The notes under the pieces: model-generated
The model's database searches: none
Told to the model about the DNA's origin: nothing
The model's input: the letters and a program-made list of their open reading frames with translations, nothing else
Program-made: the position numbers and the translations under genes
Assembly: GCA_030698695.1 (NCBI GenBank)
Contig: JAUYMR010000012.1
Coordinates: forward strand, 1 to 53,595
Length of the DNA: 53,595 nucleotides
Source of the DNA: a bacterium
GTDB lineage: Bacteria > Patescibacteriota > Minisyncoccia > UBA6257 > WO2-44-18
Direction: 5' to 3'
Part shown: positions 14,869 to 41,307 of the stretch, piece by piece
Layout: the number at the start of each line of letters is the position of its first letter
Numbering within the stretch: the first letter of the stretch is position 1

Positions 14869-14890
14869 TAAGGTCTTGCGATGGCCTTAG
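14869..14890 (+). repeat. REP-like palindrome, copy 1 (TAAGGTCTTGCGATGGCCTTAG)
   Basis: 7-bp stem TAAGGYC/GGCCTTA with loop TTGCGAT, immediately upstream of the RAYT-like gene. Confidence 0.8.
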
Positions 14891-14910
14891 GTGGAATGTT
14901 AGATTAAAAT

Positions 14911-15606
14911 ATGGCGAAAAAGGTAGTCGGGCAAATATATCATGTATTGAATAGAGGAGTAGATAAAAGGGATATATTCCTTGATGATGAGGACCGCTTT
15001 CGGTTTGTTCACGATCTATTTGAGTTCAATGACGTGGCGCCCATAAATAATGTTAAATATTATTTCAACCAAACTTCTAAGGCCATCGCAAGGCCTTATA
15101 TCAATGTCGAGAGGAGGCCGCGAAAATTATTGGTAGAGATCTTGGCATTTTGCATGATGACTAATCATTATCATTTATTATTGCGTCCACTTTCAGACAA
15201 CGGTATTACTCATTTCATGAAGCGTCTTAACATGGGGTATGCTCATTATTTTAATTTAAAATATCAACGTAGTGGTGCGCTATTCCAAGGAAGATATAAA
15301 TCCGTACACGTTGTTAATGATGCCCATTTCATTCATCTGCCTTATTATATTCATTTAAATCCCCTTGATCTTTATATGCCCAGATGGCGAGAAAGAGAGA
15401 TTTCTAATTATCAACAAGCTTTGAAATTTTTAAAAAAATATCGTTGGAGTAGTCATTTGGACTATATGGGTATTAAAAATTTACCATCAGTAACCCAAAG
15501 AGGCTTTTTGTTAAAATTTTGGGATAATAGCCAATATGAGAATGGTTTGATAGAATGGTTGAAATCAATAGAGCTTCAAGATATGAACCCGATGCTTTTA
15601 GAATAA
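14911..15606 (+). CDS. IS200-like Y1 HUH transposase, REP-associated tyrosine transposase (RAYT)-like
   Basis: HUH motif NHYHLLL and catalytic Tyr context FQGRYKS; 231 aa. Bracketed by two copies of the same palindrome. Confidence 0.8.
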   Translation: MAKKVVGQIYHVLNRGVDKRDIFLDDEDRFRFVHDLFEFNDVAPINNVKYYFNQTSKAIARPYINVERRPRKLLVEILAFCMMTNHYHLLLRPLSDNGITHFMKRLNMGYAHYFNLKYQRSGALFQGRYKSVHVVNDAHFIHLPYYIHLNPLDLYMPRWREREISNYQQALKFLKKYRWSSHLDYMGIKNLPSVTQRGFLLKFWDNSQYENGLIEWLKSIELQDMNPMLLE

Positions 15607-15607
15607 T

Positions 15608-15630
15608 TTAAGGCCTTGCGATGGCCTTAA
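15608..15630 (+). repeat. REP-like palindrome, copy 2 (TTAAGGCCTTGCGATGGCCTTAA)
   Basis: Same stem and loop as copy 1, in the same loop orientation, immediately downstream of the RAYT-like gene. Confidence 0.8.
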
Positions 15631-34125: not shown

Positions 34126-34146
34126 TAAGGCCTTGCGATGGCCTTA
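34126..34146 (+). repeat. REP-like palindrome, copy 3 (TAAGGCCTTGCGATGGCCTTA)
   Basis: Identical to the copy-2 core, in an intergenic position between two minus-strand genes. Confidence 0.8.
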
Positions 34147-37278: not shown

Positions 37279-37345
37279 GCGATGCTTCGGCACGGGGCCG
37301 AAAGACAGGCTTGGAATAGTTGCTTGAAAAAAGAGGGAAGAAACC

Positions 37346-37561
37346 ATGAGAGTAAAGAGCGCGTCCGATCCGACCAATGGCCCCGTCAAGGACCCCGCCC
37401 GCGGAAGGAAGAAGTTGGGCGATTTCTGCCGTTGTAATTTGAGGAGAGATGTATTTACTCCTGTGGACGGAGACGTCGACTTTTATGCCCCTTATGAGGG
37501 GCATAGTCTGCGCTCGCTCTTCTGTGAGCCCAGTCTTTTGGAGTCGGACTCCTTGGATTAA
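37346..37561 (+). CDS. Small GC-rich hypothetical protein (71 aa)
   Basis: GAGGGA SD 6-7 nt before the ATG, G/C-rich third positions in the first half, and a strong terminator downstream. Confidence 0.45.
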   Translation: MRVKSASDPTNGPVKDPARGRKKLGDFCRCNLRRDVFTPVDGDVDFYAPYEGHSLRSLFCEPSLLESDSLD

Positions 37562-37600
37562 GGCGATCTTTCGCCCGGGCTTTTGGATGACGAGTTTCGG

Positions 37601-37639
37601 GTCCCCCGTTCCATATTTTCGGAACGGGGGACTTTTTTA
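37601..37639 (+). terminator. Rho-independent terminator
   Basis: 12-bp stem GTCCCCCGTTCC/GGAACGGGGGAC followed by T6. Confidence 0.85.
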
Positions 37640-37642
37640 TTT

Positions 37643-37673
37643 GATTTTGCCGATTCTAAAAATCGGCAAAATC
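37643..37673. repeat. Perfect 13-bp hairpin GATTTTGCCGATT-ctaaa-AATCGGCAAAATC
   Basis: Read directly. Sits immediately after the terminator. Confidence 0.8.
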
Positions 37674-37824
37674 ATTCTGAGGGAAGCGAAGAATAACAAT
37701 ATGTCAGGAAAATCAGTCTGCTATTATTGCGAGGAGCCGTCCATTAGCTGATGGGCGACAAGGTGGTAATCTAACTATAATGTAAGATTGCCGCGTTACG
37801 CTTGCAATGACGGAAAATGGGTGC

Positions 37825-37851
37825 TTGACATCATCAAGGGCCTGATATAAT
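37825..37851 (+). promoter_or_regulatory. rplJ operon promoter
   Basis: TTGACA followed by an extended -10 TGATATAAT (15-nt spacer). Confidence 0.55.
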
Positions 37852-37857
37852 ATAAAT

Positions 37858-38070
37858 ACATATTCCGCAGACAAGAGGTTGGCCAACAGCCGTAAATCCT
37901 CTCAAGGAGAATTAGTTAGTTGGTTAATTAGTTAGTTGGTAGCTTTGCAAAAACAATTAACTAACTAACAACTAATTAACTAGAATCTCTGCGGCATAAC
38001 AGCCGTTTTTATTTTACACGACCGTTCGTGGCATTCATATAGAGTCTATAATGTTTATATCATATTTTTT
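37858..38070 (+). ncRNA. Structured rplJ (L10) leader with putative attenuator
   Basis: P1 CCGCAGA(37865)/TCTGCGG(37988), P2 AGAGG/CCTCT, and a long AU-rich hairpin at 37907..37987. A competing hairpin GCGGCataacaGCCGT plus T-run lies at 37991..38014. Confidence 0.5.
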
Positions 38071-39129: not shown

Positions 39130-39133
39130 TCTT

Positions 39134-39167
39134 AAAAAAATATCCACCAATTGGTGGATATTTTTTT
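39134..39167 (+). terminator. Rho-independent terminator after rplL
   Basis: AAAAAATATCCACCAA/TTGGTGGATATTTTTTT palindrome. Confidence 0.85.
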
Positions 39168-39172
39168 AAATA

Positions 39173-39376
39173 TGGACGCTACTGGGATCGAACCAGCGAC
39201 TTTTCCGACCTGCCTGCCGTATTGGTGCGCGCACCTGGATTCGAACCAGGGGCCTTTGCAATGTGAATGCAACGCTCTAACCAGCTGAGCTATGCGCGCC
39301 TAGATAGGCCTATTTGTTAAACAAGTAGGCGGTAGGCGGGCGCGAACGGAACGTTCTGCCACTGAACTAAGCGTCC
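39173..39376 (-). tRNA. Interrupted tRNA (isotype undetermined) with a ~132-nt insert in the anticodon loop
   Basis: GGACGCT-TA-GTTC-AGTGGCA-GAAC-G-TTCCG [139 nt] CGGAA-AAGTC-GCTGG-TTCGATC-CCAGT-AGCGTCC-A. All stems and tertiary-contact positions are intact. Confidence 0.6.
39223..39299 (-). tRNA. tRNA-Val (anticodon CAC), CCA encoded, nested inside the interrupted tRNA
   Basis: GCGCGCA-TA-GCTC-AGCTGGTTA-GAGC-G-TTGCA-TTCACAT-TGCAA-AGGCC-CCTGG-TTCGAAT-CCAGG-TGCGCGC-ACCA. Confidence 0.9.
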
Positions 39377-39416
39377 GATTAAAGCCGTCCCATTTGATGG
39401 GGCGGCTTGTTTATAT

Positions 39417-39827
39417 CTAAGCGTGACTGAATTTCATAAAACTATTTTTACCAATATGCACATATCTAACATAATATGATGTTCTGGGAATCTTACCTAA
39501 CAAATACCTGCGCTGTTTATTGGAAAATCTTTTATAAAGAATATTTTCCAAATCATAAATATATTGGTGATGAGCGGTGGGGAATATTTGATGACATAAT
39601 TCATGGATCAAGGTTTTGATTTTTTCATCTTCATCCAGATCATCGTCAATTAATGCGTAAATTTCCAGTAAGCCATTAGTGATGAGATAACCGCACAGCG
39701 AGCCACGTGATTTATTGTCGGATAACAGACCTCTAATGGATTTAACATGCACGATTCTTTTGTCCAATATGAATTTGAATTGCATAAAAAACACGTTAAC
39801 AAAAACAGCGATCTCTCTGCCGGCCAT
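39417..39827 (-). CDS. Hypothetical HExxH-motif protein (putative small zinc metallopeptidase)
   Basis: TAGGAGG SD before the ATG and an LIHELCHQIF motif. Hairpin at 39381..39407 downstream. Confidence 0.55.
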   Translation of the reverse strand: MAGREIAVFVNVFFMQFKFILDKRIVHVKSIRGLLSDNKSRGSLCGYLITNGLLEIYALIDDDLDEDEKIKTLIHELCHQIFPTAHHQYIYDLENILYKRFSNKQRRYLLGKIPRTSYYVRYVHIGKNSFMKFSHA

Positions 39828-39939
39828 GGGCGCCTCCTATCAATATTTATACAATCAAAATACTACTGACATCATAACGTTATTTTCGGCTGATTAGCAA
39901 TATTCTGCGCGTTAATACGTTGATTTTTGAGAAGCGTTG

Positions 39940-40045
39940 TTATCCACAAGTTCTGTATTGGTGAATTGGGGAGTGGTGGTGTATAGTTAAACATAGGTGG
40001 GGAATTGTGGATAAGTATGGGGATAACCTCACTTTCTGGGGATAA
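39940..40045 (+). promoter_or_regulatory. Cluster of DnaA-box-like / MraZ-operator-like repeats upstream of mraZ
   Basis: TTATCCACA (39940), TGGGGA (39967, 39998), TGTGGATAA (40006), TGGGGATAA (40018, 40037). Confidence 0.55.
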
Positions 40046-40057
40046 CTTTATAAAGAT

Positions 40058-40486
40058 ATGTTCATCGGAGAATATCAACACAATTTAGATGAGAAGGGCA
40101 GATTGGCCGTACCTGCTAAATTTCGCCAACAGATGAGGGGAGCCATTATAACCCGCGGACTTGATAAATGTTTGTGGGTCTTTAATAAATCAGAATGGGA
40201 ATTGCTGGCGCAAAAATTAATCGCTCTACCGTTGGCTCAGGCAAATTCTAGGGCGTTTGTTCGTTTAATGTTGGCTGGCGCCATGGAAGCTCCGCTTGAT
40301 GTGCAGGGCAGGATCTTAGTTCCAGATTATTTGCGTCGTTATTCAGGATTGAAAAAATCGGCCATTGTGGCTGGTTTGTATAATCGCATAGAAATTTGGG
40401 ATGAGAATAAATGGCAGAATTATAAGTCCAAAACCGAGGCCTCTTCCGATGATATAGCAGAGAAATTGTCGGAATTAGGGATATGA
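40058..40486 (+). CDS. mraZ: Transcriptional regulator MraZ
   Basis: MFIGEYQHNLDEKGRLAVPAKFR and a second SpoVT/AbrB-like repeat. Confidence 0.95.
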   Translation: MFIGEYQHNLDEKGRLAVPAKFRQQMRGAIITRGLDKCLWVFNKSEWELLAQKLIALPLAQANSRAFVRLMLAGAMEAPLDVQGRILVPDYLRRYSGLKKSAIVAGLYNRIEIWDENKWQNYKSKTEASSDDIAEKLSELGI

Positions 40487-41307
40487 TTCATCAAGCAGTT
40501 CTTTTAAAAGAGGTAATAAAAGTTTTAGATCCAAAACCGGGAGAATTCTTTATTGACGGGACAGCTGGCGCGGGGGGCCACAGTCAAGCCATTGGGGAAA
40601 AAATTGGCGATAAAGGAAGATTATTGGCTATTGATTGGGAAAAGACCGGAGAAAACTACGCTGACTTGCCAAAGATTTTAAAAGATAAGCATTTAGGCAA
40701 GGCAGACGGTTTGTTGCTGGATTTGGGGTTTTCTTCCGATCAATTAATATCCGGGTCCGGCTTCAGTTTTTTAAAAGATGAGCCTCTGATTATGACTTAT
40801 AGTTCTGATAATGACCCGGCTAAAGATGTTTTGTTAGAGCTGACAGAAGATGAATTGGCGGACGTCATTAAAACCTATGGAGAAGAACATTATGCCAAAC
40901 GTATTGCTGAAGCCATCAAGGAACAAGAAAAAAGAAAGCCAATTGATACTACTGGAGAATTGGTGGCGGCCATAAAAAGAGCTGTGCCACCTAACTATGA
41001 AAATGGTCGCATAAATCCAGCCACTCGGACTTTTATGGCTCTTCGCATATATGTCAATCGGGAATTGGAAAATTTGGAAATTTTATTACAACAGTTGGAT
41101 AAAATATTAAAACACAATGGACGAGTCGCTATTATATCATTCCATTCATTAGAGGATAGGTTGGTTAAAAATTATTTTCGCGACTTAGCCAAAGAGAACA
41201 AGCTGGAAATATTAACCAAGAAGCCAATCGTCGCTAGTCAGGAAGAAATAATTAATAATCCACGTTCGCGCTCAGCCAAGTTGAGGGCGGCCAAGATAGT
41301 TAATTAG
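40483..41307 (+). CDS. rsmH: 16S rRNA (cytosine1402-N4)-methyltransferase RsmH
   Basis: HQAVLLKEV..DGTAGAGGHS and FHSLEDR motifs. Confidence 0.9.
   Translation: MIHQAVLLKEVIKVLDPKPGEFFIDGTAGAGGHSQAIGEKIGDKGRLLAIDWEKTGENYADLPKILKDKHLGKADGLLLDLGFSSDQLISGSGFSFLKDEPLIMTYSSDNDPAKDVLLELTEDELADVIKTYGEEHYAKRIAEAIKEQEKRKPIDTTGELVAAIKRAVPPNYENGRINPATRTFMALRIYVNRELENLEILLQQLDKILKHNGRVAIISFHSLEDRLVKNYFRDLAKENKLEILTKKPIVASQEEIINNPRSRSAKLRAAKIVN

Follow-up and report, generated by a model that had tools for sequence, protein, structure and literature searches.

In tRNA-dependent lysogeny, the integration of a phage destroys an essential host tRNA gene, and a phage-encoded tRNA of the same isotype complements the loss, the inserted DNA being an entire prophage that includes an attP site and encodes a tyrosine integrase (Guerrero-Bustamante and Hatfull 2024, PMC10865867). 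The present analysis concerns an arrangement on a contig of 53,595 nucleotides (nt) from a Patescibacteriota bacterium of the candidate phyla radiation (CPR) (JAUYMR010000012.1, assembly GCA_030698695.1; this whole stretch is hereafter referred to as the window), in which an intact tRNA-Val(CAC) gene lies in the anticodon loop of a second tRNA gene. This unit, located downstream of rplL, is referred to as the nest. Comparison with related loci shows that a resident tRNA-Val(CAC) gene was split in its anticodon loop by DNA carrying another tRNA-Val(CAC) gene, and that this has taken place more than once in the lineage. We assign a probability of roughly 0.7 to the reading that foreign DNA with a replacement tRNA-Val(CAC) was inserted in the anticodon loop of the resident gene and that the outer halves are a young relic of that gene. 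Gene disruption with replacement by an incoming tRNA, and not a spliced or split bacterial tRNA, is thus the most likely nature of the nest.

The nest resembles tRNA-dependent lysogeny in that the host tRNA gene is split and not rebuilt (host 5' part, insert with a tRNA, and host 3' part) and in that the incoming tRNA is a tRNA-Val(CAC) and the disrupted gene is of Val(CAC) ancestry. It differs in that the insert measures 135 bp, contains neither an integrase nor a prophage, shows no direct core repeat (attL/attR), and has inverted repeats as flanks; moreover, the break lies in the anticodon loop with a loss of 3 nt, and the arrangement is recursive, with three layers at one related locus (L010). 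Two of the four features that define tRNA-dependent lysogeny are therefore found in the nest.

Several other described systems resemble the nest in part. As at integration scars (for which PMC9897764 may be compared), a partial, non-functional tRNA stands beside an intact gene of the same kind, and the classical downstream 3' fragment is present at three loci of relatives (L004, L017, and L028); whereas a classical scar is a single 3' fragment after the element, both halves of the old gene survive in the nest and enclose the new gene. Bulge-helix-bulge introns and Nanoarchaeum-type split tRNAs share with the nest an interruption of the anticodon loop and GC-rich complementary sequences that extend the anticodon stem, but in the nest there is no such motif, no recoverable anticodon, and no splicing enzyme found in the window, the host is a bacterium, and what is embedded is another tRNA of the same isoacceptor. 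Archaeal tRNA-Trp introns can hold another functional RNA, namely a C/D box RNA. Bacterial group I introns (in tRNA-Leu(UAA), tRNA-fMet, and tRNA-Arg) likewise interrupt a bacterial tRNA in the anticodon loop; they are recognized by a P1-P9 core, typically of 200 nt or more (Rfam RF00028), whereas the insert of the nest is 135 nt long, 77 nt of which are tRNA, has no RF00028 core, and lies between exons that give no working loop. Like REPIN and MITE elements, the insert is short and has terminal inverted repeats, and the genome contains a RAYT-like gene and REP hairpins; unlike them, it has no second copy in the window, arms unrelated to the REP sequence, no target-site duplication, and a tRNA as cargo. 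Searches of the accessible literature library found neither a case of one tRNA gene nested within another nor tRNA introns in CPR bacteria. Recursion, exact targeting of the anticodon loop, and flanking inverted repeats set the nest apart from an ordinary pseudogene.

Structure and identity of the outer gene

Read on the minus strand from 39376 to 39173, the nest consists of a 30-nt tRNA 5' half, 139 nt of intervening DNA, and a matching 35-nt 3' half (Table 1). The 5' half reads GGACGCT-TA-GTTC-AGTGGCA-GAAC-G-TTCCG and the 3' half CGGAA-AAGTC-GCTGG-TTCGATC-CCAGT-AGCGTCC-A; together, they form a complete cloverleaf minus the anticodon loop, with the usual conserved bases present and with full pairing in the acceptor (7/7), D (4/4), and anticodon (5/5) stems and four Watson-Crick pairs plus one G-U pair in the T stem. 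An earlier note on this DNA had described the nested layout, the 139-nt gap, the inner tRNA-Val(CAC) with encoded CCA, the tandem repeat, and the hairpin, and its description, coordinates included, was accurate in all details checked; its statement that the halves are very well preserved also agrees with the pairing given above. Two derived changes are present in the outer 3' half, i.e. an A at variable-loop position 2, where 12 of the 13 aligned sequences have a G, and the G49-U65 wobble pair, both of which distinguish it from the homologues compared. The inner tRNA, presumably the functional gene, is flanked by 47 nt on the left, containing the tandem repeat and the hairpin, and by 15 nt on the right.

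The anticodons CGG, CGC, and CAG previously proposed for the outer gene proved wrong, as the gene belongs to the Val(CAC) family with the loop TTCACAT. An exact search with the first 24 nt of the outer 5' half, run against JGI metagenomes and the GTDB collection (a single genome for each species), found only two further kinds of locus: these 24 nt also begin the intact tRNA-Val(CAC) of L011 and the interrupted second layer of L010. At L011 and L012, the uninterrupted gene of the GGACGCT type is a tRNA-Val(CAC) with the loop TTCACAT, to which the outer halves in the window are 91% identical when the loop is excluded, and the intact tRNA-Val(CAC) downstream of rplL at L007 has the same anticodon stem (TTCCG/CGGAA) and T arm as the outer gene. 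Because these intact genes match, the outer gene is, as judged from sequence comparison, a tRNA-Val(CAC) paralogue rather than a tRNA for Pro, Ala, or Leu. The ancestral loop TTCACAT has kept TTC...T but lost ACA to the 135-bp insert. The inner and outer genes are 66% identical and represent different sequence types; the inner gene is at most 76% identical to any other tRNA-Val compared.

A profile built solely from the intact tRNA-Val(CAC) genes of relatives, with the window and L011 excluded, matched both halves in nhmmer, i.e. 39374-39344 (profile positions 3-33, E = 1e-5) and 39208-39173 (positions 37-72, E = 5e-5), and both matches were better than those of the same profile to the tRNA-Phe and tRNA-Glu genes of the window. 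The two halves joined by any 7-nt loop were called as a tRNA by ARAGORN. The tRNA likeness of the outer halves, as scored by these programs, exceeds chance expectation.

The possibility that the nest is an assembly chimera joining two separate tRNA-Val genes appears extremely slight. Positions 39263-41109, which include the outer 5' half and extend across the left junction to nt 37 of the inner tRNA, are exactly reproduced by a separate Logan assembly of run SRR13727534. A second Logan contig of this run stops at 39161, within a perfect 19-bp palindrome, so both contigs end in or near the region, and the right junction (39208/39207) is supported by the window's own assembly, with no second contig recovered across it; these points would favour a chimera. 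However, the palindrome, together with tRNA k-mers that also occur in the sister species of the same sample (L015 and L029), accounts for these breaks. Both joins fall where the anticodon-stem strands end, in sequence that is unique, and the junction segments contain no common repeat of >10 nt that could drive a chimeric join. In addition, a misjoin would not yield a second half complementary to the first in the acceptor and anticodon stems. Furthermore, three assemblies give the same sequence for the deeper nest of L010, and L011 and L012 agree with each other.

Table 1. Features of the nest and its surroundings in the window, and layers of the related L010 nest
Feature	Position	Strand	Basis or remark
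Outer tRNA-Val(CAC) relic, 5' half, GGACGCTTAGTTCAGTGGCAGAACGTTCCG	39347-39376	-	tRNA positions 1-31; acceptor 5' strand, D arm, anticodon-stem 5' strand
Segment between outer anticodon-stem strands, 139 nt	39208-39346	-	
Leftover TTC of outer anticodon loop (ancestral TTCACAT)	39344-39346	-	Alignment with intact homologues and nhmmer boundaries
135-bp insert in place of loop bases ACA (left flank, inner tRNA, right flank)	39209-39343	-	nhmmer boundaries at profile positions 33 and 37
C-rich left arm GCGCCCGCCTACCGC, adjoining outer anticodon stem and pairing with right arm	39329-39343	-	9/11 complementary to 39209-39219; minimum-energy fold
(CGCCTAC)x2 tandem repeat, overlapped by left arm	39325-39338	-	Sequence
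Hairpin GCCTACTTGTTTAACAAATAGGC, ending 8 nt upstream of inner tRNA	39308-39330	-	Repeat analysis and predicted fold
Inner intact tRNA-Val(CAC), encoded CCA	39223-39299	-	ARAGORN; Rfam RF00005, 72.5 bits
Right flank ATACGGCAGGCAGG, holding G-rich arm CGGCAGGCAGG (39209-39219)	39209-39222	-	Pairs with left arm in predicted fold
Leftover T38 of outer anticodon loop	39208	-	nhmmer: 3' half begins at profile position 37, the final loop base
Outer tRNA-Val(CAC) relic, 3' half, CGGAAAAGTCGCTGGTTCGATCCCAGTAGCGTCCA	39173-39207	-	tRNA positions 39-73; anticodon-stem 3' strand, variable loop, T arm, acceptor 3' strand, A73
Perfect 19-bp palindrome with A/T runs on both sides; putative two-way terminator common to rplL (+) and nest (-)	39132-39169		Inverted repeat and predicted fold
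Hairpin between HExxH reading frame and outer tRNA 5' end	39382-39408		Predicted fold, inverted repeat
L010 outermost layer, GGGCGCA...TGCGCCC-A-CCA			Split at anticodon stem TTGCA/TGCAA
L010 middle layer, GGACGCT type			Split at anticodon stem TTCGC/GCGAA
L010 innermost layer			Intact tRNA-Val(CAC)

The rplL-linked tRNA-Val locus in relatives

The rplL product of the window is closest to Patescibacteria (CPR) proteins, several of which are labelled Harrisonbacteria, and the best match outside the window is 80% identical. The gene order rplJ, rplL, tRNA unit, a 136-amino-acid (aa) open reading frame (ORF) with an HExxH motif on the minus strand, mraZ, and rsmH is kept in relatives, and a tRNA-Val(CAC) gene is present at this locus in every relative whose contig reaches that far. 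Comparison of the locus, which had been recommended in the earlier note, was informative and decided the matter.

A single Harrisonbacteria locus is represented by three assemblies (L010, L013, and L014), the sequences of which are identical over 4.7-6 kb; in it, three concentric Val-type tRNAs, the innermost alone intact (Table 1), lie downstream of rplJ-rplL and a small zinc-ribbon-like ORF. The 344-nt unit has a predicted concentric fold of -155 kcal/mol vs. -104 kcal/mol for shuffled sequences (z = -10.4). The contig of a closer relative of L010 (P0100, rplL 97% identical) ends 253 nt past rplL, short of the tRNA locus. Whether a hairpin between the first two L010 layers, CGGGGTTCACACCCCG, might be what is left of a fourth, eroded layer (its anticodon arm) or might mimic an attP site was also considered. 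Both readings are treated as unproven, since the hairpin is common in phage contigs, where it is several times followed by a terminator-like T run.

Less regular remnants are found elsewhere. At L004, the intact gene is followed, 7 nt on, by positions 27-73 of an older Val gene; at L017, the intact gene is accompanied by two 3' fragments at spacings of 69 and ~190 nt, and the whole block is inverted; and at L028, a fragment running from the T loop to the CCA follows the intact gene after 107 nt. The loci L003, L007, L016, L030, and L031 are clean, without fragments. Past replacement is therefore visible at 5 of the 10 distinct rplL-linked loci (the window, the L010 type, L004, L017, and L028). 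A sixth case, at another locus, is that of L011 and L012, where the intact GGACGCT gene lies within an eroded shell in a different gene neighbourhood (an OpgC-like acyltransferase and an S41 peptidase). Because the shell of L011 has decayed by deletions while its inner gene is intact, shells appear to be dispensable. These data mark the tRNA-Val(CAC) gene that follows rplL as a hot spot of repeated invasion and replacement in this CPR lineage; such events have left either 3' fragments next to the gene or shells that enclose it concentrically.

The sequence types are distributed across these loci in a pattern that fits movement of tRNA-Val genes between genomes. The outermost layer of L010 is 82% identical to the resident gene of L028, and its innermost layer is 98% identical to that of L031. 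Horizontal movement is consistent with the data because the inner and outer types of the window differ (66% identity) and because the GGACGCT type is present in three organisms with different rplL sequences or gene contexts, in two of which it is split and in one intact. The GGACGCT tRNA-Val in its eroded shell (L011, 700-960; L012, 1150-1400) is on a contig labelled Saccharibacteria, in a context unlike rplL-mraZ, and given this context the nest as a whole may have moved between genomes.

Further variation was observed around the locus. The tRNA-Val block is inverted together with its upstream flank between close relatives (L017, 2764-3179 vs. L004, 3256-3381). In L017, a GC-rich segment of ~170 nt (~2786-2945) without an Rfam match lies between the two tRNA-Val 3' fragments; at its end is a degraded sequence resembling a T arm, after which comes a terminator. 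Between rplL and tRNA-Val, L004 (2967-3182), L014 (8843-9160), and L017 (2514-2720) have a small ORF that is rich in cysteine and resembles a zinc ribbon; the window lacks this ORF there, and its tRNA unit is on the opposite strand from that in relatives. The HExxH ORF of the window (39417-39827, minus strand) has no Pfam match, and its counterparts of 115-156 aa are conserved beside the tRNA-Val of relatives, one of them with a weak match to Peptidase_M78 (ImmA/IrrE-like).

Junction repeats and decoding capacity of the outer halves

At every junction, the sequences just inside the outer anticodon stem are complementary on both sides. In the window, the arms GCCCGCCTACCG and CGGCAGGCAGG pair at 9 of 11 positions; the flank pairings with one mismatch reported earlier are all present and are part of the predicted minimum-energy fold. 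At L010, the arms of the outer junction (CCGCGCCCCG and CGGGGCGCGG) pair at 10 of 10 positions and those of the inner junction (GCCCCGTTACAAAT and ATTTGTAACGGGGC) at 14 of 14. The helix flanking the GGACGCT gene is formed by GTTACAAAT and ATTTGTAAC in L011 vs. GCACTAAAAT and ATTTAGTGC in L010, with four changes matched on both arms. Seen at three to four independent junctions, the arms could be the symmetric halves of a recombination site, a hairpin in single-stranded DNA, or an RNA helix selected to clamp the halves and isolate the inner fold.

These complementary flanks, and the matched changes in the GGACGCT helix, would also suit a functional interrupted tRNA, i.e. an outer gene with a 139-nt intron, or one whose split halves are held by the flank helix and are ligated or paired after excision of the inner tRNA. 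Every outer stem and tertiary-contact base is intact, and the outermost shell of L010 is a perfect cloverleaf with encoded CCA, as expected from such a gene. We nevertheless consider this explanation highly improbable. No 7-nt loop built from the retained TTC...T can restore CAC; the loops available are TTCAGGT, TTCGGGT, and TTCGCGT, which would give Leu-CAG, Pro-CGG, and Ala-CGC, respectively, and these anticodons do not suit a body that is of Val type, has a short variable arm, and contains A3-U70. There is also no conserved product, because the interrupted GGACGCT copy of L010 keeps TT...CAT and would yield a different set (AGC, UGC, or UUC). In L011, moreover, the outer shell has decayed.

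Searches for a splicing route gave concordant results. When all relaxed matches to the bulge-helix-bulge motif in the window and L010 nests were listed, they were at chance level and none lay at a usable junction; the lone match near the window junction takes the anticodon stem as its central helix and would delete the 3' strand of that stem. In Rfam searches (gathering score and E <= 5), the insert, whose non-tRNA part amounts to 58 nt, contained no group I or group II intron or ribozyme and matched tRNA only. ARAGORN in intron mode (0-400 nt), a check that had been proposed for the outer gene, called the inner genes only, in the window, L010, and L011, and the RtcB and EndA-like genes that had also been proposed as a check were not among the ~45 ORFs scanned in the window (53.6 kb of the genome). 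As in split tRNAs, GC-rich complementary sequences stand beside the break, but the halves are not at separate loci: they lie 139 nt apart on one strand, with one upstream hairpin and one terminator. With the anticodon gone and no route to regain it, the outer halves are, on this reading of the sequence, unable to decode. Of the explanations offered in the earlier note, a spliced, religated, or trans-split tRNA was not supported, there being no CAC, no bulge-helix-bulge, and no conserved product, whereas a very recently disrupted gene fits the evidence.

Origin and significance of the nest

On the favoured explanation of disruption and replacement, a 135-bp foreign piece would have entered the resident anticodon loop, displacing ACA. 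This piece would have comprised a complete tRNA-Val(CAC) of a different sequence type, the upstream hairpin, and a few flanking bases. In relatives, a terminator hairpin lies upstream of the resident tRNA-Val at a distance similar to that of the window hairpin at 39308-39330, which suggests that the insert is a fragment of a donor tRNA-Val locus. The inner gene would then have taken over the Val(CAC) function. No promoter-like site was found in the insert itself or, on the minus strand, between the HExxH ORF and the tRNA, and co-transcription of the nest with that ORF is possible in view of the latter. The whole unit is probably transcribed as one RNA ending at the two-way terminator (39132-39169). 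Processing by RNase P and at the 3' end would free the inner tRNA. The two outer halves would remain as by-products, kept together by pairing in the acceptor and anticodon stems and by the helix between the flanks. Our best guess for the origin is that a mobile element with its own tRNA-Val integrated site-specifically and that later deletions spared only the tRNA.

Several observations weigh against this explanation. No integrase, transposase, or other recombinase is present in or beside the insert, and the sole mobile-element protein among the ~45 ORFs of the window is a RAYT-like Y1 transposase 24 kb away. The junctions have no common-core direct repeat or target-site duplication such as a tyrosine integrase or a cut-and-paste transposase, respectively, would be expected to produce, and the inverted repeats that abut the outer anticodon stem at every junction are not explained by random insertion. 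All inserts and spacers at the locus measure 7-190 bp, and decayed prophages should include some large ones. The outer halves are near-perfect, and the outermost shell of L010, the oldest by the insertion model, is a perfect cloverleaf, which is unexpected under neutral decay. The innermost gene of L010 is the commonest resident type in relatives (the type of L031), making it uncertain which layer is the newcomer. Finally, viral and phage searches gave no donor.

The good preservation of the shells could instead reflect selection at the RNA level, with the outer halves, although non-decoding, clamping the fold of the embedded tRNA or supporting its processing, offering RNase P a handle, or keeping paralogue halves from mispairing, and the nest being maintained. 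In addition to the state of the shells, this alternative would account for the inverted repeats that stack straight on the outer anticodon stem at all junctions, the concentric predicted fold of L010 and its z-score, the L010/L011 changes that preserve pairing, and the reliance of an inner gene without its own promoter-like site on the outer transcription unit. We regard it as unlikely, since most relatives have a tRNA-Val(CAC) at the same locus without a shell and the L011 shell is badly eroded around an intact gene; moreover, the covariation rests on few independent sequences, and the inverted repeats are equally explicable as recombination sites at the DNA level.

The lack of an integrase and core repeat, inserts of <200 bp, and the good preservation of the shells together leave room for two less ordinary readings, namely a minimal self-homing cassette and the retention of shells for a role at the RNA level. 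More tentatively than disruption and replacement by an ordinary element, we propose that the inserts might be a previously undescribed minimal mobile cassette, consisting of a promoterless tRNA-Val(CAC) bounded by inverted repeats, which homes to the anticodon loop of the same isoacceptor, borrows its promoter and terminator, and, because the resident copy is destroyed in the process, becomes indispensable; every cassette that arrives would in turn be the next target, giving rise to concentric shells. In such a cassette, the inverted repeats would be symmetric recombination-site halves or a hairpin recognized in single-stranded DNA.

Other candidate origins were rejected. In viral contigs, no match was found to the outer 5' half or to the inner anticodon arm. 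A 16-mer from the L010/L011 flank gave ten matches attributable to chance, with no partner arm, and blastn against phage genomes returned only generic tRNA similarity (77-84% over 63-75 nt). In its simple form, a tyrosine integrase with the anticodon loop as overlap does not fit the two junctions, at which the arm-to-stem sequences are reverse-complementary and not direct repeats. Two rearrangements, one by inversion between tRNA copies of opposite orientation and the other by excision from a set of tandem copies followed by reintegration, yield on paper chimeric complete genes and no nest. The window contains no second copy of the hairpin or arms and no duplication at the junctions. Mobilization by IS200/IS605 or RAYT elements was discarded as the REP hairpin AAGGCCTTGCGATGGCCTTA is unrelated to the insert flanks.

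This REP-like hairpin occurs four times in the window (14870-15629 and 34127-34146), with none expected by chance, and three of the four copies lie within or around an ORF (14911-15606) that is adjacent to trmD and encodes a Y1 transposase domain of the IS200/RAYT type. By these features, it looks like a RAYT-REP system in a CPR genome. In addition, the spacer between the cysteine desulfurase gene and rplJ (37279-38070) is 790 nt long vs. 129 nt in L003. It contains a 71-aa ORF (37346-37561), two strong terminator-like hairpins, a 16-codon CxxC mini-ORF, and an L10-leader-like match (37847-38020; 40.6 bits, under the family threshold of 44), and the fold of its plus strand has a z-score of -6.7.

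For genome annotation, loci of this kind call for caution: standard tRNA finders give the innermost gene only, and a split-aware search may mistake shells for intron-bearing or split bacterial tRNAs. The finding also raises the questions of which enzyme cuts the anticodon loops of tRNA-Val genes and why the inverted repeats stack on the anticodon stem. One tRNA-Val type is shared by three CPR organisms whose rplL sequences or gene contexts are not alike. If the explanation given here is true, a lineage with a small genome swaps a tRNA gene by invasion, and not by point mutation or duplication, and the locus is a layered record of these events. The principle of destroying the host tRNA gene and bringing one's own, known from mycobacteriophages, would thereby be extended to CPR bacteria in a stripped-down and recursive form.

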